26,140 bases of DNA from Candidatus Micrarchaeota archaeon (GTDB lineage Archaea > Micrarchaeota > Micrarchaeia > Anstonellales > Anstonellaceae), in NCBI GenBank assembly GCA_023248665.1, contig JAHFEC010000001.1, forward strand, positions 1-26,140. Direction: 5' to 3'. This document shows, piece after piece, positions 1 through 10,951 of this stretch. Made by a program: the position numbers and the translations under genes. The notes beneath the pieces were generated by a model. The model did no database searches. It saw only the letters and a list, made by a program, of their open reading frames with translations, and had not been told where the DNA came from. Numbering within the stretch: the stretch's first letter is position 1; the number at the start of each line of letters is the position of its first letter.

Positions 1-447
1 ATCCGGAAATGTGGGAACCCGGCGCTCAATTACCACGGGTTTGAGAACTTGCTCGCGCAGGGAGAATTCCAGCCACACCGTCTGGGCCGAACGGTCGGAG
101 CCATCAAAAAGCGGCCCGTGCGCCTTGAGCCTGAAAGTGGCGGAGCGCTCATCCACCTGCTCTTTGACCACGTCGAAATGGAGAAGGGGCTCGGCGCTGG
201 CAATCGCTTTCTGCACCAGACCCGGCAGGCTTTGGGCGTCTATCGAGGCCGTGAAATCCAAATCTTCGCTGAAACGATCCAGCCCGTAGAGCTTCTGCAA
301 AGCGGTGCCGCCCTTGAAAACGAACTGGGTCGAGGAGACCGAATAGAGCGAAGAGAGCAGCACGTCCTGCAGATAGCTTTTCTCGGTCTGGTAGAGATTG
401 AACCTGAGGCGCGAGGCATACCGGCCCAAATCCGTCCGATTAATCAT
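1..447 (-). CDS. abiEii: AbiEii-family nucleotidyltransferase toxin (type IV TA), runs off the window edge
   Basis: Not in the ORF track because it has no stop inside the window. Manual translation from ATG 447 gives MINRTDLGRY...QFVFKGGTALQKLYGLDRFSEDLDF, the AbiEii KGGT/RFSEDLD signature. ATGA overlap with the upstream antitoxin stop; frame open to base 1. Confidence 0.92.
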   Translation of the reverse strand, partial: MINRTDLGRYASRLRFNLYQTEKSYLQDVLLSSLYSVSSTQFVFKGGTALQKLYGLDRFSEDLDFTASIDAQSLPGLVQKAIASAEPLLHFDVVKEQVDERSATFRLKAHGPLFDGSDRSAQTVWLEFSLREQVLKPVVIERRVPTFPD

Positions 448-1142
448 TCCAACACCTCGTTTATGATTAGATTCCACCTCTTATCCACCGGCCCGCGGGC
501 GGGAGCGGATGGGTTGATGGGGTCGTTTTTGCGGTTGTGGGGCAGCTTGAAATTGTAGAAGATGCCCGCTTTCCCAAGCAGGAAACCCAGTCGCTTATTC
601 ACGATGCCCGAATCCAATCGTTCGGCGTATTCGGCCAATTTCCCCAGGTCCAAATCCGCCTGGCGCAGCGCTTGCAGAGTCTCGGACAGGGGGGCCTGCT
701 CTGGAAGATAAAGACTGTCCAAAATCGCTTTCTCGGGGTCGGCCACACGGACGCCATCAACGAGTGAGAAGCCGAAAAATGCCTCTTTCTTTAGGCAAAT
801 GAACTGGATTTTGGTGCCCGCGTAGTCCAATGGCTTGCGCGGCCTCACGACCGCCACCTGCTCGACAATCGGTATCTGGGTGGTGAGATGATGGAAGGAG
901 AGGGCGGAAAGAAAGGAGAGATAGGAGGGATGGGCGATGCTCGACGCGACCGCGTGCAAATCCGTATCGGACAGGGCGTATTTCCCGCGTTCGATATGGC
1001 GGATGCGGCCGGTTTTTTTGAGGCGGGCCAGATAGAGCTTGCAGTAGGGGGTTGGCTTTTGGATGACGCGCGCCGCATCGGCCAGTATGAAGACACCTGC
1101 ATCCATTCGGCGCAGGGTTTGCTCGAACTGTTCGGCGTTCAT
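444..1142 (-). CDS. abiEi: AbiEi-family antitoxin / transcriptional regulator (COG5340-like)
   Basis: N-terminal wHTH-like RLKKTGRIRHIERGKY, SYLSFLSALSFH and VADPEKAILDSL motifs; coupled to abiEii. ATG 1142 preferred over TTG 1148. Confidence 0.88.
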   Translation of the reverse strand: MNAEQFEQTLRRMDAGVFILADAARVIQKPTPYCKLYLARLKKTGRIRHIERGKYALSDTDLHAVASSIAHPSYLSFLSALSFHHLTTQIPIVEQVAVVRPRKPLDYAGTKIQFICLKKEAFFGFSLVDGVRVADPEKAILDSLYLPEQAPLSETLQALRQADLDLGKLAEYAERLDSGIVNKRLGFLLGKAGIFYNFKLPHNRKNDPINPSAPARGPVDKRWNLIINEVLE

Positions 1143-1164
1143 ATCCAATATTTAAACATTCATA

Positions 1165-2050: not shown

Positions 2051-2274
2051 TGAGCAGCATCAACATTTCCCTGAACGCGGACGCCTACGCGCGCCTCGTC
2101 CGCCTCAAGCGCAAGAGCGAAAGTTTTTCCCAAGCCGTCGTCCGGTTGGCCGGCGAGAAAGACATCCGGCGTTGCTACGGCCTTCTCAAGGACGAGGATG
2201 ACGGCGCGTGGGATGCGGTTGCGGCGGAAGTGGCGCGCGTCCGGCGCCTTCCGTTGCGGGGGCGTTTGCGATGA
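2050..2274 (+). CDS. vapB: VapB-family antitoxin (COG1753-like RHH)
   Basis: SINISLNADAYARLVRLKRKSESFSQAVVRL fits the archaeal VapB pattern; ATGA overlap with the PIN gene. Confidence 0.87.
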   Translation: MSSINISLNADAYARLVRLKRKSESFSQAVVRLAGEKDIRRCYGLLKDEDDGAWDAVAAEVARVRRLPLRGRLR

Positions 2275-2675
2275 ATGCCTTGCTGGACAGTTCCGTGCTC
2301 ATCGACCTGTTGCGCGGCCATATCGGAGCCGAGGCCGAGATTGAGAAACTCCGCCTGAACGGAGCCGTTTTTTATACCTCCACCCTCAACCTCTACGAAG
2401 TGCTTTGCGGCCTGACGCTCGTCTCAAAGCGCCATCCGAACCGGATGAATGCCTTCGAGACCATGGTTTCCAGCATTCATGTGCTGGACTTCAATCCGTC
2501 TTGCGCCAAGAAATCGGCCCAGATATTCGCGCAGTTGAGGGCGGCCGGAAAACCGGCCGATGGGCTCGATTATCTTGTCGCCGGAACCGCGCTATCTTCC
2601 GGTATCGACGTGATCGTGAGCGCGAACAAGAAGCATTTCGAGCATATCGACGGCCTGAAAGTCATCGGCTATTGA
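2271..2675 (+). CDS. vapC: VapC PIN-domain ribonuclease toxin
   Basis: LLDSSVLIDLL, NLYEVLCG, DGLDYLVAGTA and VSANKKHF PIN motifs; start ATG 2271. Confidence 0.92.
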   Translation: MNALLDSSVLIDLLRGHIGAEAEIEKLRLNGAVFYTSTLNLYEVLCGLTLVSKRHPNRMNAFETMVSSIHVLDFNPSCAKKSAQIFAQLRAAGKPADGLDYLVAGTALSSGIDVIVSANKKHFEHIDGLKVIGY

Positions 2676-2678
2676 GCC

Positions 2679-3149
2679 TCATTCCGTTTCGGCCCGCCAC
2701 CCTTTGATGAATTTCAAGAACTGGTCGACCGGCAGCACATACGCCCGTTTCTCCTTCCACACGACGCGATACCCCAGCCGGAGCAGCACCATCTCGTCCC
2801 GCTTGTCGCAGTGCGACAGCACCACCTGCCCGTCTTCCATCTTTCCGACCGAGTCAAACAGGCCGGCCAAAAATGCGGCCGCGTAATCATTGGCATGGCA
2901 GAACGCCTCGTCCTCGCGTTTGAGCGTATTCTCGAAGAAAAGTCGGTAGGCCGTGTGGTAGAAATACGCGCGGTCCCCACTCAGCTGGATCTTGTCCGCA
3001 TCCGCCAGGCCGGCCTTGACCACGCGCGACACGAACACCTCGACGAACTCCGGCGTCCCCCGAACCCCGATGCCCTCCTTGGTGCGCACCCATTTCCACG
3101 CCCCGATGAGGTAGGATAGGGCCGGGTCGAGTTTTATCTTCATGTCCAT
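2679..3149 (-). CDS. Stand-alone degenerate LAGLIDADG-like protein
   Basis: AAAFLAGLFDSVG resembles the second LAGLIDADG helix and ALSYLIGAW the first; catalytic acidic residues absent. Confidence 0.65.
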   Translation of the reverse strand: MDMKIKLDPALSYLIGAWKWVRTKEGIGVRGTPEFVEVFVSRVVKAGLADADKIQLSGDRAYFYHTAYRLFFENTLKREDEAFCHANDYAAAFLAGLFDSVGKMEDGQVVLSHCDKRDEMVLLRLGYRVVWKEKRAYVLPVDQFLKFIKGWRAETE

Positions 3150-3196
3150 TATTTGCGGGCCGGGGCTTTTTTAACCTCCGGTGCGTGCTTCTGCGC

Positions 3197-4087
3197 ATGG
3201 CCGAGGAATCCCGCAAAGAGTCCAAGCCGATCCTGCCGCCTGCGCCGGCGAAGAACGTGGTGCTCGAGGCCCTCATGGCCAAGGACGGCGACGAGCCGAA
3301 AAAGGAGGAGGCGCGCAAGGCCTTGGCCCTGTCTGCCGACATGAAAAACGAGAGCCCGAAAAAATCGGCAGCCCTGCCGTCCGCGCTCCATCTGCCGGCC
3401 GCCTCGGAGGCCGCCGCGCACAAGAAATCTCTGGCCTCCCCCGTCCAGAAGCCGGCCGTTCCCCTGCAAAAATCCAATCCGCCTGCCGTCCATCTGAAGC
3501 CGCCGGCCATGCCGTTGCTCAAGCACCCGTTCCCCCCTTCCACCCGGGGTGGGCAATCCTCCATTCCCGAGATGCTCCTGTGGCTGGACAGCTATGACGA
3601 CATCTTCTCCGACTTCGACCCGCGCAATTACGAGTACCGCGAGCTTTCCGAGGACTTCCTCAAGGAGCTGAGCCGGCGCTACAAGGAGACGCCCAAGGGG
3701 GGCTTCGAGGTGCACCTTCTCATTCCCGCGCACCTGCGGCAGGCGCACCTCGAGGCGCGCATCAAGAAGAGGCTCAGGCATTATTTCGCCCGCGAGCTGG
3801 CCGGCGTGGAGCGGCAATTGCGAAAGAAGCGCGAGACCGGCGTCAAGTTCATCGCCGCCGGGCTCCTCGTGCTCTCGGCCCAGACCTGGCTGCTCTTCTC
3901 CTACCCCGACCGCTTCCTGCCCGAACTCATCGGCGTGCTGCTCGTGCCGGCCGGCTGGTTCGCCACTTGGACCGGCATCGAGCGGATGGTCGTGGAGCCG
4001 GAGAACCTCGTCTCCCTGCGCGAGTTCTACAAAAAATTCTTCAGGTGCGAATACGTGTTTTTGGCGGACGAGAGCCCCAAGAGATGA
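3197..4087 (+). CDS. Conserved hypothetical membrane protein with long Pro/Ala/Lys-rich N-terminal extension
   Basis: C-terminal domain LDSYDDIFSDFDPR...LSEDFL followed by two hydrophobic helices; T-rich TATA-like element at about 3167-3174. Confidence 0.8.
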   Translation: MAEESRKESKPILPPAPAKNVVLEALMAKDGDEPKKEEARKALALSADMKNESPKKSAALPSALHLPAASEAAAHKKSLASPVQKPAVPLQKSNPPAVHLKPPAMPLLKHPFPPSTRGGQSSIPEMLLWLDSYDDIFSDFDPRNYEYRELSEDFLKELSRRYKETPKGGFEVHLLIPAHLRQAHLEARIKKRLRHYFARELAGVERQLRKKRETGVKFIAAGLLVLSAQTWLLFSYPDRFLPELIGVLLVPAGWFATWTGIERMVVEPENLVSLREFYKKFFRCEYVFLADESPKR

Positions 4088-4130
4088 TGATAGAGCGCTC
4101 GCGCAGGAATCCGGCCGCTCCTGCCTCTTC

Positions 4131-5120
4131 CTATCCGTCTTGTTTCGTCCCCATCGCACTCATCAGCTGCGTCTCGTCTTGGCTGCGCGTGATCTTTTCG
4201 CGCACGCGCGCCGAATCCCGAAAGCCGCACGCCAGTTGCAGGGCCAGTCCCTTGGCCGCATTGAACGGGATGTCATATTCGCGCGACAATCGGCCGTACT
4301 CCCCCAAGAACCCGACTTTTTCTTCCCACCCCGTCTCCTTCCATTTTCCATCCGCCAGATATTCTCTTGCATGCCGGAAGAAGAGCGGATCGGCCAGCAC
4401 GGCCCGGCCCGCCATCACGCCCGCGCAGCCGGACACCTCGCAGATCCTTTTCACGTCCGGCGGCGCGCACACGTCGCCGTTCCCGAACACGGGCACCGAG
4501 ACGGCCCGCACCACCTCGCCGATGGCTTCCCAATCCGCTTTCCCGCCGAACTTCTGCCTCGCGGTGCGCCCGTGCACCGCCAGCGCCTGCACGCCTGCCG
4601 CTTCCAGCGCGCGGGCCATCTCGACGTTCTTGCCGTCTTTGTCGCCCAGCCTCATCTTCACCGTCACGGGCAGCGGGGAATATTTCGCCGCCGCCTCGAC
4701 GATTTTCGTGGCGTTCTTAGGCCTCTCCAAAAGCCGCGAGCCCGCGCCGGTCTTCACCACCTTCTTGGCGGGGCAGCCGAAATTCAAGTCGATGAGCCGG
4801 GCCCCGCATTCCCCGCTCTCCACATTTTCCCCGATGATCCTCACCGCCGCCGAGATGTCCGCGGGGTTCGCGCCGAACAGCTGGATGGCGCTGATGCCGC
4901 CCTCCCCGACGCGGATGATCTGGGCGGTCTTGGTGATCCGCCCGCCCTTCGAGAATCCGATCCCCTGCCGGGCGATGGCCGTGGCGGAGATCAATTCCGT
5001 ATAGACAATGTCCGCGCCGTTCCTGGCGATCAGCTCGCGGTAGGCCACGTCGGTGTAGCCGGCCATCGGGGCCAGCGCCAGCGCGGGTTCGCTCCGGATG
5101 GTGACGTTCCCGATTCTCAT
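4131..5120 (-). CDS. dus: tRNA-dihydrouridine synthase (Dus/DusB-like)
   Basis: LAPMAGYTD, IQLFG, DLNFGCP (catalytic Cys), VTVKMRLG, VHGRT, FGNGDV, GVMAGRA. Confidence 0.95.
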   Translation of the reverse strand: MRIGNVTIRSEPALALAPMAGYTDVAYRELIARNGADIVYTELISATAIARQGIGFSKGGRITKTAQIIRVGEGGISAIQLFGANPADISAAVRIIGENVESGECGARLIDLNFGCPAKKVVKTGAGSRLLERPKNATKIVEAAAKYSPLPVTVKMRLGDKDGKNVEMARALEAAGVQALAVHGRTARQKFGGKADWEAIGEVVRAVSVPVFGNGDVCAPPDVKRICEVSGCAGVMAGRAVLADPLFFRHAREYLADGKWKETGWEEKVGFLGEYGRLSREYDIPFNAAKGLALQLACGFRDSARVREKITRSQDETQLMSAMGTKQDG

Positions 5121-5228
5121 GCGATGACCCGTATGTGCGCAAGACCCGTAGCGCTTATTAATTTCACGATGCGCGTATTGTTTTCAATATCCATTCGGAT
5201 TCATGATATTAATTAATGGGGGGTTTGG

Positions 5229-5891
5229 ATGAATAAGGCATTCTCGGTCGCCATCCTGTTTACGTTGTCGCTCTTCCTCTTGTTCGGCTGCGCGAGCCCG
5301 CTGGCGGGTGCCGCTGCGGGCGCGAATCAATCCGGCTCAAATGCAGCCAGCCAGTCCGCGCCGAACGCCAACCCATCCGCGCCCGGCGCCGGCGCGAGCC
5401 CGTCCGCCCCCAACGCATCCATTTCCAATCCAACCGGAGGTATTTCCATGGCCAAAAATCCAGTCGTCGTATTCGAGACCAACAAGGGCGTGTTCAAAGC
5501 CGAGATATTCGTCAACGAGGCGCCGATCACGGGCAACAATTTCATGAAGCTCGTGCGCGCCGGCTTCTATGAAAACCTGACCTTCCACCGCGTGGAGCCT
5601 GATTTCGTGGTGCAGGGCGGCGACCCCAAGGGCGACGGCACCGGCGGCTCGGGCCAGAACATCCCGCTTGAAATAAAGCCCAACCTCAAGCACGTGTACG
5701 GAAGCCTCGGCATGGCCCGCGCGAACGACCCCAACTCGGCATCCTCGCAATTCTACGTCGTCACCGGCCCGGCCTCGTTCCTCGACGGCCAGTATGCCGT
5801 GTTCGGGAAAGTCCTCGGCACCGGCATGGACGTGGTGACCCGCATACGCGTCGGCGACCGGATGACCAAGGTGTACGAGGAGAAATCGTAA
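5229..5891 (+). CDS. Cyclophilin-type peptidyl-prolyl isomerase, lipoprotein
   Basis: LFLLFGC lipobox, Ala/Ser/Pro/Asn linker, then FHRVEPDFVVQGGDP, GSLGMAR, SASSQFY, YAVFGKV. Confidence 0.95.
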   Translation: MNKAFSVAILFTLSLFLLFGCASPLAGAAAGANQSGSNAASQSAPNANPSAPGAGASPSAPNASISNPTGGISMAKNPVVVFETNKGVFKAEIFVNEAPITGNNFMKLVRAGFYENLTFHRVEPDFVVQGGDPKGDGTGGSGQNIPLEIKPNLKHVYGSLGMARANDPNSASSQFYVVTGPASFLDGQYAVFGKVLGTGMDVVTRIRVGDRMTKVYEEKS

Positions 5892-5934
5892 GGCGCATCG
5901 GGTTAAAAACTTCTTTTCCCCTATTTTTCCTGCC

Positions 5935-6007
5935 GGGGGAATGAGCTAACCTGGTATGCTGCCAGGTTTGGGACCTGGTTGTCCGAGTTCAAATCTCGGT
6001 TCCCCCA
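5935..6007 (+). tRNA. tRNA-Pro(UGG)
   Basis: Acceptor GGGGGAA/TTCCCCC, anticodon stem CCAGG/CCTGG with loop TT-TGG-GA, T arm CCGAG-TTCAAAT-CTCGG; no encoded CCA; TTAAAAA about 26 nt upstream. Confidence 0.96.
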
Positions 6008-6012
6008 AGGAC

Positions 6013-6102
6013 TTTTTCTTTTCTTGTCTGCGGGCAAGAAAAGAAAACCTCCACTAAAAGAAAAGAAACATTTTGTCTGCGGGCAAGAAAAGAAAAACCT
6101 CC
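6013..6102 (+). repeat. 15-bp hairpin and partial 29/30-bp direct duplication downstream of tRNA-Pro
   Basis: TTTTCTTTTCTTGTC-tgcg-GGCAAGAAAAGAAAA (6014-6047); TTGTCTGCGGGCAAGAAAAGAAAA(A)CCTCC at 6024-6052 and 6073-6102. Confidence 0.85.
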
Positions 6103-6333
6103 CGAAAGTGCAAAGCACTTCTGGGCGCCATCGGCCCACGGGCCGATGCGTGTCACTAAAAGAAAAGAATCGTCAGGAAAGAAAAACCTGCGGCAACGCC
6201 AAAGCGTTGCGGTGCAGCCGGCCACCGAAAACGTGGTTGTCGGTAAGTCGGCCGAAGCCGACTGTAAAGCCGACTCGCACCTCGAAAAGAAAGTAAAAAA
6301 GAAAGCGATTAAGAATCGGTTTTCGGCTTTTCC

Positions 6334-7758
6334 TCACTTCGTCAGCATGATCTGCCCGTTCTTGCCCAGCAGCAGCACCAGCTCGCTTGAGTGCGTGAAA
6401 TAGTCCACGTACATGTCGCGCAGGGAAACCAGGTCGCCCTTGTCTATGCCGTTGCCGCGTTGGGGCATCACATACAGCGGCAGCGTGCGCTTGCCGTCCG
6501 ACACCGCGATGCGCGCCATCTGCACCATCTTCTTCTTTCCGGCGGGCACCATCACCAGCGTGTGCTCCACCACCTCCAGCGGGAAGGTGGTCAGCTTCTT
6601 CATGCCGGGCTTGAGGCCCGTCAGGCTCTCGATGCCGTTCTCTTTCGCGCGGTCGATGGCCATCTTGAACGCCATCTCGATCTCGTTCTTGATGTCTTTT
6701 AGCAGGCGCTCCTTCTCCTTCTTGAGCTCGGCCGCCTTGATACCGGGCGTGATGGCGAGCGCGTACGCCCACTGGTAGTAGTCGAGGCGGCTCTTGGGCA
6801 GCCTCCCCTCCTCCTCCCTGAACTCCCCTTCCGATCCCGCGAGCATGGGGATGGACGATACGGGCGAGTTCATCCTCTGTTCGAGGTTCGCCGGCAGCGG
6901 GAAATTGATGGCCTCATCGAGCCTCTCCTGCGTCGGCCGGACGGATTCCGTCTGGGCGGCCGGCGCCTCTTCATAGGGGTGCCGGATCTGGTGGAGCGCA
7001 TGGGGGCTGGCGCGTCCCGGCAGCAGGCCGATCCTCGCCTCGGCCTTGTCAAGCGAAGTCGTTCTGGGCATCTGCTCGATGGCCGACAGCGGATCGCCGG
7101 CGCCCGGAGCCTCCTGTCCATTCTCTTCGGATTCCTCGCTTTCGGCGTCTTCCTCTTCCCTCGAGATCTCCTCGTGTGCCGATTCAATCCGGTTCTTTGG
7201 CGAGCCCGCCAGAACCGGGCCGGCATGGGGCAACGGAACAGCGGCCTCGCCTTCCGGGGCGCGCGTCCCGCCCCTCTCCTTGCCGGTTGACATCCACGAG
7301 AAGAGCTTCTCGATGGAGGGCATGAGCCTGTCCTTGCTGGCCTTGTGCTTGGAGAATATCTTCTCGATCGATGGCATCATCTTGCTCTTGGTGGCCTCGA
7401 TGTCCTGCTCGCTGGCTTTGCCTTCGGCCTTCTCCTCGAATATCTTCTCCAGATCGACGATGGCTTCTTTCTCCTCCTTGAAATTTCCAAGCCCCGCGAG
7501 CGCCAGTTCCTTGATTTTGAGGTCCTTGTCGGCCGACAGCTCCAGGCGCGCAAAGATGGCCCTCGGGCCGTCGAATATGGAGAGTTCGATGGTGGCCTTC
7601 TTGCGCACGTGCGGGTCCGCGGCGTAGGTGAGCGAGACGAGCCGGTCGATGCGCGCGTTCTCGTCCTCGGCCAGCGCGGGCGCTGAGGCAGCCAAAGTAG
7701 CCTGCCCTTCCGGAGGCATCGGATGCTCCGTGCCTTTCGCGTGCTTGAGCGGGTTCAT
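6334..7758 (-). CDS. HEAT-repeat + acidic disordered linker + C-terminal RPA/SSB-like OB-fold protein
   Basis: N-terminal RLVSLTYAADPHVRKKATIEL...LELSADKDLKIKELALAGLG; C-terminal LTGLKPGMKKL...IAVSDGKR...IDKGDLVSLRDMYVDYF...ELVLLLGKNG. TATATAAG about 30 nt upstream. Confidence 0.75.
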   Translation of the reverse strand: MNPLKHAKGTEHPMPPEGQATLAASAPALAEDENARIDRLVSLTYAADPHVRKKATIELSIFDGPRAIFARLELSADKDLKIKELALAGLGNFKEEKEAIVDLEKIFEEKAEGKASEQDIEATKSKMMPSIEKIFSKHKASKDRLMPSIEKLFSWMSTGKERGGTRAPEGEAAVPLPHAGPVLAGSPKNRIESAHEEISREEEDAESEESEENGQEAPGAGDPLSAIEQMPRTTSLDKAEARIGLLPGRASPHALHQIRHPYEEAPAAQTESVRPTQERLDEAINFPLPANLEQRMNSPVSSIPMLAGSEGEFREEEGRLPKSRLDYYQWAYALAITPGIKAAELKKEKERLLKDIKNEIEMAFKMAIDRAKENGIESLTGLKPGMKKLTTFPLEVVEHTLVMVPAGKKKMVQMARIAVSDGKRTLPLYVMPQRGNGIDKGDLVSLRDMYVDYFTHSSELVLLLGKNGQIMLTK

Positions 7759-7843
7759 GGTAATCCGATGGCCATAACCACCTTAACTTATATATAGGCT
7801 CGGTGGCCGGGTTTCCGCCCGTCCCGTGTCCCATTGCTTTAAG

Positions 7844-7915
7844 TGGACTTGGTGGGAGTCGGACCCACGACCTCCTGATTGCAAATCAGGCGCGCTACCA
7901 CTGCGCCACAAGCCC
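7844..7915 (-). tRNA. tRNA-Ala(UGC)
   Basis: GGGCTTG/CAAGTCC acceptor with G3:U70, anticodon stem CCTGA/TCAGG with loop TT-TGC-AA, discriminator A. Confidence 0.95.
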
Positions 7916-7978: not shown

Positions 7979-9523
7979 ATGCAAGAGGCTAAAAACCCCA
8001 AACGGCCTTTTTATTTCATGGACGACGAGCATCCCAAGCCCCCGCCCACCCCGCCTCCAGAATCCGGCCCGGTGCAGCTGCCTGAAGGCGTCGTAGCCCG
8101 CCCGGATCCCCCGGCGCGGGTCATCGACTGGGACGGATTCAATTCGCGCGCCCTCGAGGCGAGAAAAGAGGTCGAGCGGATGCGCGAGCCGCTCTTGGTC
8201 AACCACTACGACTGCGACGGGCTTTCGTCCGGCGCCATCGTCTGCGCGTTCCTTGAGAAGCTCGGCAAGAAATACAAGGTCCACACCGTGCGCAAAGTGG
8301 ACGACGCCCTAATCGGCTCGCTCGCGTCCGAGAAAGAGGTCATCTTCACCGACTTGGGCGGCGGCAGCCCGAGAGTAGACGAGCTGGGCGGCCATGTGGT
8401 GGTGTTCGACCACCACCAGACCAAGGGCCTCCGGCACCTCCAGCTCAATCCCCATCTTTTCGGCATCGACGGCGGCACCGAATTGTGTGGCGCCACCACC
8501 ACCTATTGGGCCTTGCGCGCCTTGCCGGAGGCCGCCATCGTGGGCGCCATCGGCGACATGCAATACCCGCTCATCGGCGCCAACCGCCGACTGCTCGACG
8601 AGCTGTCGGCCCGGGGCATCGTCCAAGCCTCCATCGACCTGCGCTTCTACGGCCGGATGTCCCGCCCGCTCCCTCAGCTGCTCGCCTTCGCCGACGACCC
8701 GTTCCTGCCCGGCCTGGGGGGCAGCGAGGAGCGGTGCGCGCAATTTCTGGAAAACATCGGCCTTGGCAAAAAAGAGCCGAACGGCGCGCCGGCCGCTTCA
8801 TCCGGCGCGAAATCGCCCTCGCCCGCCCCGGCCGGCGCCGATCCGCGCGCCTGGCGCACCTATTCGCAGCTGGACAACGCAGAGAAAAAGAAGCTGGTGA
8901 GCGCGCTCGCGCTCTACATGGCCGAGCTCTCGGGCGGGCCGTACCGCGCCGAGAAACTGGTGGGTGAAACCTACCTGTTCCCGCGCCTCTCATCCATCCC
9001 CGAATTATACGACGCCGGCGAATTCTCCACTCTCCTCAACGCCTGCGGCCGGCACAGCAAGCCGCAGGTGGGCATCGACGTCTGCCTCGGCCGGCCGGGG
9101 GCGCTGGAGCAGGCCCGTGCGCTGCTGGCTGAGCATCGGCGGGCCCTGCGCGAAGGCGTTGATTTCGCATACAAGAATTCGCGCGATTTCGGCCCCTTCC
9201 TTTTCCTCGACGGGCGGGGCGTCATCGACGACGGCATCATCGGCGTGGTGGCCGGCATGCTCTATCCGGGCGGGCGCAAAAAGCCCATCCTCGCCATCGC
9301 CTACGAGGAGGGCGGCAAGATCAAAATCTCCACGCGCGGCACGAAAAAACTCGTCGGCGAGGGGCTGAACCTCGGGCTCGCCCTCTCGAAAACCTGCCCC
9401 CTCGTGGGCGGCGTGGGCGGCGGGCATGCCATCGCCGCCGGCGCTTCCATCCCGCCGGACAAACTGGACGAATTCCTGAAGCTGTTCCCGCAGGAGATCG
9501 AGGCGCAGCTGAAAGCGAAATAG
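7979..9523 (+). CDS. recJ: Archaeal RecJ/GAN-like DHH-DHHA1 phosphoesterase (ssDNA exonuclease)
   Basis: HYDCDG, FTDLG, FDHH, GDMQ and GGGHAIAAG motifs. ORF-track start 7826 overlaps the tRNA, so ATG 7979 (or 8018) is preferred. Confidence 0.9.
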   Translation: MQEAKNPKRPFYFMDDEHPKPPPTPPPESGPVQLPEGVVARPDPPARVIDWDGFNSRALEARKEVERMREPLLVNHYDCDGLSSGAIVCAFLEKLGKKYKVHTVRKVDDALIGSLASEKEVIFTDLGGGSPRVDELGGHVVVFDHHQTKGLRHLQLNPHLFGIDGGTELCGATTTYWALRALPEAAIVGAIGDMQYPLIGANRRLLDELSARGIVQASIDLRFYGRMSRPLPQLLAFADDPFLPGLGGSEERCAQFLENIGLGKKEPNGAPAASSGAKSPSPAPAGADPRAWRTYSQLDNAEKKKLVSALALYMAELSGGPYRAEKLVGETYLFPRLSSIPELYDAGEFSTLLNACGRHSKPQVGIDVCLGRPGALEQARALLAEHRRALREGVDFAYKNSRDFGPFLFLDGRGVIDDGIIGVVAGMLYPGGRKKPILAIAYEEGGKIKISTRGTKKLVGEGLNLGLALSKTCPLVGGVGGGHAIAAGASIPPDKLDEFLKLFPQEIEAQLKAK

Positions 9524-9715: not shown

Positions 9716-10951
9716 ATGCTCTTTACCGAGAAGCACGGCCCGAAAAAAGTTTGTGATCTGGCTGGCAACACGACGGTTTTCTCCCGCCTGCGCCAATGGG
9801 CCATGCAGTTCACCATGGGCAAAGTGCAGAAGCCCCTCCTGCTCTGGGGCCCCCCGGGATGCGCCAAGAGCGCGGCCGCCCACGCGCTCGCCTCCGAGAT
9901 GGGCTGGCCGCTGACCCCCGTCTACCCGCCCGAGGAGGGCGAGACGGATCGATGGGAGGGGCGGATCGCCTCCCTCCTGGGCGGTTCTTCCCTGTTCGGC
10001 GACGCATCCCTCGTGCTGGCCGACGACGTGGACGGCTGGGGCAAGACCGGCGTGCGCGGCTCGCTCTCCAAATTCACCGCACTGGCCCGCTCCGCCCGCG
10101 TGCCCCTCATCATCACGGCGCACGACGCATACGACCGGAGCGTCTCCTCCTTGCGCTCGCTCTGCGAGCCGTTGCAGCTGCGCGCCATCAACGCCTCGGA
10201 CATCGAATCGGCGCTGCGCGTCATCGCCGCGAAAGAGAAATACGCCGTCTCCGACGAGGAGATGAAGAAGCTCGTCGCCAACTGCGGCGGGGACCTGCGC
10301 GCCGCGGTCAACGATTTGGAGGCGCACAATTTCGCCGCCTCGCGGGAGCGCGAGCGCGGCCAGTTCGAGATCGTGCGCGCCTGCTTCAAGTCCCCGAGCT
10401 ACGCGGCCGCCAAGAAAGTCCCGCTGGGCGGCCTGTCCGAGCGCAACATGCTCAAGCTCTACGTCGCCGAGAACATGCCGGCCGAGCTCAACGGGCCCGA
10501 AGACCTCGCCCGGGGCTTCGACTTCCTCTCTCGCGCCGACGTGTTCGACGGGCGCATCCGCGCGCGCCAGTACTGGGGCTACCTGCGCTATTCGTCGGAC
10601 CTCCTCGTGTACGGCCCTTCCTCGGCGAGGCTCAAGCCCAAGGCCTCCTTCGTCTCCTACGCCTTCCCCTCCTACATCCAGAAGATGGGCTCGTCCAAAT
10701 CGCGCCGGGCCCTCGAGGGCGCGCTGGCCTATCGCATCGCCGTGCGCACGCACACGACGACGCGGACGGCGAGGCAGTACATCCCGCTCCTCGAATCGCA
10801 GGCCAAGGCGCTCGCCAAATCCGGGCAGGACCCGATGGCGCTCTCGGCCTACTACCGTTTCGACGACGAGGATTTCGCGGGGCTTCTCGAGATATCCCCT
10901 GATTCCCTCGCAGACGGCAACGGAAAAAGCAAAGCCGCCAAGGCCCATTAA
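9716..10951 (+). CDS. rfcL: Replication factor C large subunit (divergent ATPase motifs)
   Basis: LFTEKHGPK, LLLWGPPGCAKS, GDLRAAVNDLE, LSRADVFDGRIRARQYWGYLRY; GTATAAAT about 23 nt upstream. Confidence 0.88.
   Translation: MLFTEKHGPKKVCDLAGNTTVFSRLRQWAMQFTMGKVQKPLLLWGPPGCAKSAAAHALASEMGWPLTPVYPPEEGETDRWEGRIASLLGGSSLFGDASLVLADDVDGWGKTGVRGSLSKFTALARSARVPLIITAHDAYDRSVSSLRSLCEPLQLRAINASDIESALRVIAAKEKYAVSDEEMKKLVANCGGDLRAAVNDLEAHNFAASRERERGQFEIVRACFKSPSYAAAKKVPLGGLSERNMLKLYVAENMPAELNGPEDLARGFDFLSRADVFDGRIRARQYWGYLRYSSDLLVYGPSSARLKPKASFVSYAFPSYIQKMGSSKSRRALEGALAYRIAVRTHTTTRTARQYIPLLESQAKALAKSGQDPMALSAYYRFDDEDFAGLLEISPDSLADGNGKSKAAKAH

Follow-up and report, generated by a model that had tools for sequence, protein, structure and literature searches.

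A HEAT-repeat, acidic-linker and SSB-type OB-fold protein conserved in the Anstonellales (Micrarchaeota)

A 474-residue protein of a Candidatus Micrarchaeota archaeon carries a C-terminal domain that is homologous to the crenarchaeal SSB and to human SSB1. Its gene lies in a 26,140-nt stretch of contig JAHFEC010000001.1 (hereafter the window), where the whole coding sequence, from an ATG start to the stop codon, occupies positions 6334..7758 of the minus strand and encodes, in this order, HEAT repeats, a tandem motif, an acidic linker, helices and an OB fold. The HEAT, acidic linker and OB architecture is undescribed, and no Pfam or NCBIfam model captures it for the window protein. A preliminary description, made from the sequence, had proposed HEAT-like N-terminal helices, a duplicated MPSIEK(I/L)FS motif, an acidic disordered middle, a helical segment and a C-terminal OB fold of the RPA/SSB class, and each of these elements was recovered in our analysis.

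Judging from sequence and predicted structure, we give an about even chance (roughly 0.5) to the joint reading that the gene is a paralogue, specific to this lineage, of the single-OB SSB of archaea and that its product would be tethered to single strands of nucleic acid as a modular adaptor. Read as a paralogue of SSB that carries its own acidic linker and a docking module, the protein leads to a concrete, testable hypothesis, that of a lineage-specific component of nucleic-acid metabolism. The architecture is new among the few derivatives of single-OB SSBs (crenarchaeal SSB, hSSB1/2), and may offer a clean natural case in which to study the tuning of an OB fold by a disordered acidic segment.

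A conserved gene of the Anstonellales

The same two-module layout is found in 22 close and 89 representative homologues, which shows the gene to be conserved and rules out a fortuitous open reading frame. The architecture is kept across the 89 representative clusters, most of them with matched stretches at both the N- and the C-terminus. Strong full-length matches (E <= 1e-19) were present in about 132 of the 136 genomes of the window's order, the Anstonellales, as assigned by the record labels. Among the sampled genomes of other Micrarchaeota orders, no match to the HEAT-OB protein was found. A locus search with alignment A1 gave 39 loci, of which 36 bear the label Micrarchaeota or that of a taxon within it (Micrarchaeia, Micrarchaeales, Anstonellales, Anstonellaceae); three are labelled only “uncultured archaeon”. 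The genomes of 0.5-0.6 Mb in the order also carry the gene, as a 258-aa version in which the HEAT part, a short acidic linker, a helix and the OB are retained. The function is probably important, because Micrarchaeota (DPANN) genomes are very small and yet nearly all sampled genomes of the order, those of 0.5-0.6 Mb included, keep the gene.

Current names hide the SSB-derived domain. The sources call some homologues “HEAT repeat(s)” or “HEAT repeat domain-containing protein” (P0002, P0011, P0018, P0041), the latter because of the two PBS-type repeats, and others “hypothetical protein” (P0015, P0020, P0022). A Protein Atlas search with the full-length protein as query found nothing.

The C-terminal domain is an SSB-type OB fold

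The SSB/hSSB1-type OB fold spans residues 377-474 (6337..6630, minus strand), and sequence profile, profile-profile comparison and predicted structure agree on its identity. Both the family profile and hhalign indicate a significant sequence relationship to known SSBs. Against PDB sequences, profile A3 matched 5d8f (SOSS-B1/hSSB1) at E 3.6e-8 and 1o7i (Sulfolobus SSB) at E 1.3e-7. In hhalign, A3 matched five standalone Micrarchaeota SSBs (98%, E 3e-13), which themselves match 1o7i at E 8.5e-18. The AF2 model of the C-domain (pLDDT 91.4, pTM 0.69) is a five-stranded OB barrel in which a short helix separates strand 3 from strand 4 (strands 77-89, 93-103 and 108-113, helix 115-118, strands 126-137 and 142-156 of the model), all five strands having pLDDT > 90. 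The top Foldseek matches were 5d8e, 5d8f, 1o7i and 4oww, with target-normalised TM of 0.69-0.73 and rmsd of 2.4-3.0 over about 97 columns. The AF2/Foldseek check per domain, which had been suggested in advance, thus came out in favour of the fold, with a TM of ~0.7 to both 1o7i and 5d8f.

The window protein (P0001) has no OB or SSB match in Pfam or NCBIfam, and when 72 C-domains were searched singly against Pfam, none matched an OB family with E <= 0.01. Two relatives, P0037 and P0046, weakly match the archaeal SSB models of NCBIfam (including PRK06461), with 24-26 bits against cut-offs of 176-235. With the C-domain alone, Protein Atlas gave leads only, to OB_Ssb-like clusters.

The domain has the same single-OB strand order as crenarchaeal SSB (Saccharolobus solfataricus SSB, 1o7i/2mna) and the ~98-aa Micrarchaeota SSBs, shares with crenarchaeal-type and standalone SSBs the LKPG(M/L) entry motif, and superposes, as predicted, on the crenarchaeal-type SSB at an rmsd of ~2.5 Å. 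Both crenarchaeal-type SSB and the window protein carry a flexible acidic segment next to the OB. In the former, however, it forms a C-terminal tail, whereas in the 474-aa window protein the OB itself is C-terminal and the acidic segment is internal, on its N-terminal side. Crenarchaeal-type SSB has neither the HEAT repeats nor the tandem motif. Human SSB1 (SOSS-B1/NABP2; 4owt/4oww/5d8f) is the best OB match, at the E-value given above, a TM of 0.73 and 23-24% identity.

A separate ~98-aa SSB coexists with the HEAT-OB protein in the order, and many same-order genomes have a second, short SSB match. In the window's own genome, the assembly of which is 73% complete, tblastn and profile searches found no standalone SSB. 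OB searches of this genome retrieved PolD DP1 and two ORFs of ~445 aa, which we guess to be aminoacyl-tRNA synthetases, and no multi-OB RPA. The lone own-genome match to Rep_fac-A_C (PF08646) is a weak one (E 0.05) on a different contig. The window protein was also considered as a large subunit of heterotrimeric archaeal or eukaryotic RPA, which is marked by a series of OB folds, a zinc-finger OB and a trimerisation helix at the C-terminus. This was rejected, as the window protein has one OB only, no cysteine and no match to PF08646.

The OB surface is remodelled

The base-stacking triad, which we take to be W56/W75/F79 in SsoSSB and W55/Y74/F78 in hSSB1, in agreement with the profile-PDB alignment, corresponds to M431/Y450/F454 in the window protein, as compared with Trp/Trp/Phe in crenarchaeal-type SSB. 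This triad, intact in all five standalone SSBs (Trp, Trp/Tyr, Phe), is not a conserved feature of the HEAT-OB family: across 72 members, all three positions are aromatic in 7, two in 35, one in 18 and none in 12. The family conserves a different set of OB residues, namely K383, G385, M386, R416, D421, Y429 (83%) and R434 (81%, plus Lys). By strand alternation, Y429 would share a face with the SSB Trp. The acidic loop that follows beta3 in SSBs is replaced by a conserved R-G-x-G. The OB of the window protein is basic (net charge +5, pI 9.6), and the domain is positive in 97% of the 72 members, in contrast to the neutral crenarchaeal-type and standalone SSBs (~0 in the latter). The basic charge is indirect evidence for ssDNA binding, which the relaxed aromatic triad makes less certain.

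These surface changes could also mean that the OB does not bind nucleic acid at all. It would then be a protein-interaction OB like those of RPA70N, RPA32/RPA14 or Stn1/Ten1, and the whole a pure protein scaffold, in which the basic cleft binds acidic or amphipathic peptides, possibly those of its own linker or of the standalone SSB tail. We regard this as possible, though rather unlikely. It would agree with the relaxed triad, with conserved residues that differ from those of SSBs, and with a basic OB next to an acidic internal linker. In addition, a canonical SSB with intact triad coexists in relatives, which would leave the paralogue free to change its function. On the other hand, the nearest relatives in structure and sequence are DNA-binding SSBs and not RPA70N-type OBs, at least two of the aromatic positions are kept in 42 of the 72 members, and Y429 supplies a further conserved aromatic residue on the same strand. 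The strong basic character, moreover, reaches the adjoining helices.

An acidic linker and basic helices precede the OB

The linker, residues 159-311 (~150 aa; 6826..7284, minus strand), is acidic, proline-rich and predicted to be disordered, with pLDDT < 50 over most of 156-311. Its net charge is -14 in the window protein, with a family median of -13, and is negative in all 66 members scored. The charge culminates in an acidic core at residues 190-216 (7111..7191, minus strand; net -11). Also inside the linker is a conserved NFPLP motif (6889..6906, minus strand), in which P287 is near-invariant in alignment A1. A basic helical segment follows before the OB (residues 312-376; 6631..6825, minus strand), with AF2 helices spanning 310-374, conserved A363, F364 and A367, and a net charge of +1 in the window protein (family median +4).

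In Pyrococcus abyssi RPA, an acidic helical domain beside OB-1 lowers ssDNA affinity (PMC10122647). The corresponding AROD-OB-1 of Rpa1 (8aa9; PMC10122647) has helices directly N-terminal to a DNA-binding-type OB, as does the window protein, and the concept of an acidic element that modulates OB binding applies to the HEAT-OB protein. Foldseek aligns 162-171 columns of the two, but at an rmsd of ~15 Å. Furthermore, the AROD helices form an acidic three-helix bundle that a short linker joins to the OB, whereas the HEAT-OB helices are basic and the acidity resides in the disordered linker, and the window protein lacks the trimerisation core, the zinc finger (no Cys) and the further OBs of P. abyssi Rpa1. 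On sequence and charge, a relationship to AROD was rejected, since profile similarity to 8aa9 is confined to the OB (E 0.034) and the helices carry a positive charge.

If the protein is an adaptor, the basic OB and helix module would bind single-stranded nucleic acid (ssDNA, possibly RNA) through the remodelled face, on which the conserved Y429 and R434-G-x-G would replace the SSB Trp and the acidic loop; in the window protein, Y450 and F454 are retained. The linker may act like the acidic tails of SSBs, either as an intramolecular competitor that tunes binding, or as a partner-binding tail, or both. In SsoSSB the flexible tail serves partner binding, and both RNA and DNA are bound (PMC5346138). 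Docking of a partner would fall to the HEAT and motif module, which would thereby hold it at exposed single strands.

The N-terminal module combines HEAT repeats and a tandem motif

Two PBS-type HEAT repeats occupy residues 33-90 (7489..7662, minus strand), where AF2 predicts four helices (H33-43, H49-59, H65-74 and H80-90; pLDDT 81-92). Positions 43-94 of the family profile match HEAT/alphaRep chains, with a best single-domain i-Evalue of 1.9e-8. Family profile and AF2 model together place the module among the HEAT repeats, though the window sequence alone stays below the Pfam cut-off (HEAT_2, E 0.0099, 16.6 bits versus 27.7). PF13646 is precomputed on 20 of the 22 close homologues. The likeness to PBS-lyase-type HEAT proteins (HEAT_2; the alphaRep scaffold family, e.g. 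MTH187) consists in two canonical repeats, ~31 residues long, and in the D-x-x-x-x-V-R and DPRA signatures. The window protein differs from them in having only two repeats, followed by the family-specific tandem motif and the OB.

The motif copies are MPSIEKIFS at residues 128-136 (7351..7377, minus strand) and MPSIEKLFS at residues 146-154 (7297..7323, minus strand). In alignment A1, P129, E132 and F135 are near-invariant in the first copy, and P147, S148, E150 and F153 in the second, where K151 is invariant. Together they form a conserved amphipathic element, LMPS[IL]EK[LI]F in two copies, that belongs to the N-terminal module. By a strict pattern, the tandem motif is present in 42 of 67 full-length relatives. 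It is absent from every other ORF of the own genome, which makes a shared, proteome-wide short linear motif unlikely. When compared by eye with the PCNA-binding PIP-box, Q-x-x-[ILM]-x-x-[FY]-[FY], the sequence M-P-S-I-E-K-[IL]-F shows the h-x-x-a-a spacing and is flanked by basic residues, but has neither the Gln nor the first aromatic.

In the SOSS complex, an OB of the same type works with an alpha-solenoid scaffold, INTS3. Unlike SOSS, the window protein has its helical repeats and OB in one chain, and only two PBS-type HEAT repeats. Searched against the PDB, the family profile gave SOSS-B1 chains and no INTS3 chain. The likeness to SOSS is architectural only, and common descent of the scaffolds is unsupported. 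A more daring reading, which we consider improbable, would make the protein a single-chain counterpart of INTS3-hSSB1, a sensor or adaptor auto-inhibited by its linker, which would open on exposed single strands. It would then recruit, via the HEAT repeats and the tandem LMPSxEKLF, a core component of the replisome, of repair or of RNA polymerase (such as PCNA, RecJ/GINS, NurA or RpoK). If true, this would make it a component that the order has added to an otherwise conserved archaeal machinery of information processing, in DPANN archaea with reduced genomes.

Genomic neighbourhood

A tRNA-Ala(TGC) gene (7843..7915, minus strand) lies 85 nt upstream of the coding sequence on the same strand. 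Beyond it, on the plus strand, are a gene for an archaeal RecJ-family nuclease (~7979..9523; DHH, DHH-CID and DHHA1 by Pfam) and, downstream of it, rfcL, encoding the RFC large subunit (9716..10951). The recJ ORF scores 384 bits with NCBIfam RecJ_archaeal (cut-off 360), with M52 and M65 of the long ORF as the candidate starts. Coordinates and strands confirm the arrangement given in the preliminary description, with recJ and rfcL divergent from the gene across the tRNA.

The preliminary description had further inferred an ssDNA-binding scaffold in replication or repair, and had named a lack of conserved linkage as one half of what would speak against it. This half is what we found. By tblastn over 41 loci, recJ is located within 4 kb of the gene in 5 of the 12 loci of the window's family, in the genera g1, g2 and g4 only. 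It is near none of the 18 loci of f5, the largest family, and one f6 locus has it at 5.9 kb. The rfcL gene adjoins in this window alone, not even in genomes of the same genus. The linkage is therefore not conserved, recJ and rfcL are ruled out as conserved operon partners, and their placement here is a local accident. SSB and RPA proteins stimulate RecJ-type nucleases in other systems, and recJ is divergent from the gene in the window and in g1, g2 and g4, and co-directional and immediately adjacent in one locus (L007). A more specific version of the proposal, in which the protein is a dedicated ssDNA-binding partner of the neighbouring RecJ and RFC large subunit, is nevertheless highly improbable; the synteny already shows in part that the families do not co-vary. 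The earlier functional proposal is weakened because the adjacency is local and the aromatic triad is relaxed. A role in replication or repair may still be inferred, but a role in RNA metabolism or transcription, or a protein-binding OB, is equally compatible with the data.

De novo clustering of neighbours returned family-specific neighbours only. In f1, the neighbour is a ~160-aa protein, to which Pfam and a PDB profile search gave no family name. In f5, the neighbours are rpoK, a membrane protein, dCTP deaminase, NurA and a class V aminotransferase. Immediately after the gene and on the same strand, rpoK (Rpb6-like) is found in 14 of the 18 f5 loci, with a gap of 26 nt in L005. This arrangement would suit an SSB-derived factor that resembles an RNA chaperone or associates with RNA polymerase, rather than acting in replication or repair. 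The ssRNA binding of SsoSSB (PMC5346138) is consistent with such a role, and SisSSB, which is dispensable for replication, behaves as an RNA chaperone (PMC10684826). We consider this role unlikely, as the rpoK adjacency is missing from f1-f4, f6-f8 and the window, and the neighbourhoods also hold genes of DNA metabolism (dCTP deaminase and NurA in f5, a DNA ligase in one locus, recJ in some f1 loci). Since the neighbours differ between families, no consistent partner emerges from the context.

The intergenic sequence of the window contains a TATA-like, AT-rich element (7787..7796, minus strand) about 30-38 nt upstream of the ATG, a putative promoter of the gene's own that would give a short leader or none.

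A HEAT-repeat protein ending in an SSB-type OB fold

[quoted passage not shown] A disordered linker, acidic in every member scored, joins the OB to a small module of HEAT repeats and a tandem motif. HEAT repeats, acidic linker and SSB-type OB together form a new architecture, and the Micrarchaeota genomics papers searched make no mention of the family. The frame starts with ATG and spans 474 aa. Every element listed in the preliminary description, a reading of the sequence alone, is present.

Two PBS-type HEAT repeats make up the N-terminal helices. The single window sequence scores only weakly with Pfam HEAT_2 (E 0.0099); the family profile matches designed and natural HEAT-repeat chains through its positions 43-94, with individual repeats reaching i-Evalues as low as 1.9e-8, and AF2 predicts four helices in residues 33-90 (pLDDT 81-92). 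The proposed motif duplication is exact, with MPSIEKIFS at 128-136 and MPSIEKLFS at 146-154. Across the family alignment, its Pro, Glu, Lys and Phe vary little or not at all, and no other protein of the same genome was found to contain it. Judged by eye only, M-P-S-I-E-K-[IL]-F recalls a degenerate PIP box. The acidic middle that had been described as disordered corresponds to residues 159-311, which are mostly disordered by prediction and carry a net charge of -14; in their core, 13 of 27 residues are acidic. Linker net charge was negative in every family member scored (median -13). After the linker, AF2 places helices at 310-374, followed by a five-stranded domain up to the C-terminus.

To identify this domain we used a profile (A3) of the last ~157 residues of 72 family members. 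Against PDB sequences, A3 matched human SSB1/SOSS-B1 (5d8f, E 3.6e-8) and Sulfolobus SSB (1o7i, E 1.3e-7) across the entire OB, and P. abyssi RPA more weakly. The C-domain model built from A3 was confident (pLDDT 91.4, pTM 0.69), with two helices and five strands, and its best PDB structures were again hSSB1 and Sulfolobus SSB (target-normalized TM 0.69-0.73, rmsd 2.4-3.0, ~97 columns); the full-length model gave the same structural matches. Whole-genome searches revealed that relatives carry a second, short A3 match. Five of these proteins, each ~98 aa, were extracted and are typical SSBs (match to 1o7i, E 8.5e-18), which hhalign aligned to A3 with 98% probability (E 3e-13). The "RPA-like OB fold" of the preliminary description is therefore correct, and is more exactly of the single-OB SSB/hSSB1 type.

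Divergence from the standalone SSB

No curated OB model was reached by the window protein, or by any of the 72 C-domains taken individually. All five standalone Micrarchaeota SSBs have Trp, Trp/Tyr and Phe at the three base-stacking positions, and the ~98-aa SSBs of relatives (loci L088-L092) have the Trp/Trp/Phe triad intact. In the window protein these positions are M431, Y450 and F454. Across the 72 members, all three are aromatic in 7, two in 35, one in 18 and none in 12. The main alternative to nucleic acid binding, an OB turned into a protein-binding module, is favored by this relaxed triad. Other residues are conserved in the family instead: Y429 (83%), on the same strand and two residues ahead of the lost Trp; R434-G-x-G in the loop following that strand, a loop that is acidic in SSBs; and also K383, G385, M386, R416, D421 and E459. 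Whereas the standalone SSBs are approximately neutral, the OB of the window protein is basic (net +5, pI 9.6), its net charge is positive in 97% of the members, and the helices preceding it are also basic.

We infer that this basic unit of OB and helices has retained binding to single-stranded nucleic acid, via a remodeled face. The acidic linker could tune this binding or carry partners, and the N-terminal HEAT and motif module may dock a partner. As points of reference, SsoSSB contacts partners through a flexible tail and binds RNA as well as it does DNA (PMC5346138), S. islandicus SSB acts as an RNA chaperone (PMC10684826), and in P. abyssi RPA the acidic AROD domain reduces OB-1 affinity (PMC10122647).

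A family fixed in one order

The gene is real and a member of a family. A word-indexed search returned 22 relatives, all labeled Micrarchaeota or unnamed, most with a precomputed HEAT_2 match; where a name is given, it is "HEAT repeat(s)", "HEAT repeat domain-containing protein" or "hypothetical protein". An exhaustive phmmer search of 1.84 billion representatives gave 89 clusters (62 with E 1e-10 or better), typically of 330-440 aa. Their matched stretches are one N-terminal and one C-terminal, so that the two-module layout is a conserved unit with a linker of variable length. Scanning a single genome for each GTDB species with a pattern confirmed 39 loci, 36 labeled Micrarchaeota or its taxa, Anstonellaceae and Anstonellales among them, and three only "uncultured archaeon".

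An A3 search across 400 genomes from the phylum showed that the paralogue is fixed in one order, beside a normal SSB. Of the 136 genomes from the window's order, about 132 contain a strong match (E no higher than 1e-19), with frame lengths of roughly 260-550 aa. In members of this order whose genomes measure 0.5-0.6 Mb, a 258-aa version is kept, with HEAT repeats, short acidic linker, helix and OB. Other Micrarchaeota orders gave weak matches only (E 1e-4 to 1e-14); where listed, these cover the OB part alone in frames of about 100-200 aa, which identifies them as the standalone SSB. The window's own assembly, 73% complete, yielded the fusion but no short SSB, and OB-family searches detected no multi-OB RPA. 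The other OB-family matches there were the PolD small subunit and two ORFs of ~445 aa, which we guess to be aminoacyl-tRNA synthetases.

Genomic context

A tRNA-Ala lies on the same strand 85 nt upstream of the gene and, beyond it, an archaeal RecJ-family nuclease and the RFC large subunit are divergent. We queried ~20 kb around the gene from 40 genomes of the order with the window's neighbors. A recJ gene within 4 kb occurs in three genera only (g1, g2 and g4), amounting to 5/12 loci of the window's family, and near the gene on three metagenomic contigs; it is absent in 18/18 loci of f5, the largest family of the order. The rfcL adjacency is restricted to this window and absent even from same-genus genomes. 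A specific partnership with RecJ or RFC-L, suggested by this arrangement, is thus poorly supported, since the linkage is not conserved. The preliminary description thus holds as an observation, and its interpretation is supported in part. In several relatives, the place that rfcL has in the window is occupied by an unnamed 448-472-aa protein without a Pfam match, between pyrB/pyrI and recJ (L001:2510-3856, L003:602-2020, L007:4004-5395).

In the window's family, de novo neighbor clustering showed an unnamed ~160-aa protein adjoining the gene at 11 of 12 loci; there it lies within ~1.5 kb, mostly convergent and directly downstream. The window copy (2679-3149, minus strand, 156 aa) is displaced by ~3.2 kb and on the same strand as the HEAT-OB gene. 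It had no match in Pfam or PDB-profile searches; by eye, it contains the LAGLIDADG-like motifs YLIGAWK and FLAGLFDSVG. The position held by this gene in relatives is in the window a non-coding stretch (6013-6300), between tRNA-Pro (5935-6007, plus strand) and the HEAT-OB stop codon; therefore, a local rearrangement or insertion next to the gene seems likely. The interval 3150-6333 contains an unknown 300-aa ORF, Dus, cyclophilin and the tRNA-Pro.

In f5, rpoK is directly downstream on the same strand in 14/18 loci, and after it come a membrane protein, dCTP deaminase and NurA. The cluster (L055-L079; e.g., L005:4311-9574) runs from a class V aminotransferase through HEAT-OB to rpoK, with the ~205-aa membrane protein and dCTP deaminase on the opposite strand, then NurA; metagenomic contig L005 also has a DNA ligase. 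As neighborhoods differ between families, the context names no constant partner and hints only loosely at nucleic-acid metabolism.

Other features of the window

The minus-strand ORF at 1211-1936 (241 aa, GTG start) covers aIF5B only in its IF-2 and EF-Tu domain-4 parts, with no GTPase domain upstream, and may be a truncated or split copy. Where the GTPase part would be expected stands a 155-aa protein, PIN/VapC-like by eye (2208-2675, plus strand). An AbiEi-like antitoxin (444-1148, minus strand) is followed by an ORF resembling, by eye, the AbiEii nucleotidyltransferase toxin (1-477, minus strand), which runs past the window edge; the two are a probable toxin-antitoxin pair. An IS605-family OrfB/TnpB (16847-18037, minus strand) has OrfB_IS605, Cas12f1-like TNB and HTH_OrfB domains, and GC content drops to 0.51 in the kilobase holding it.
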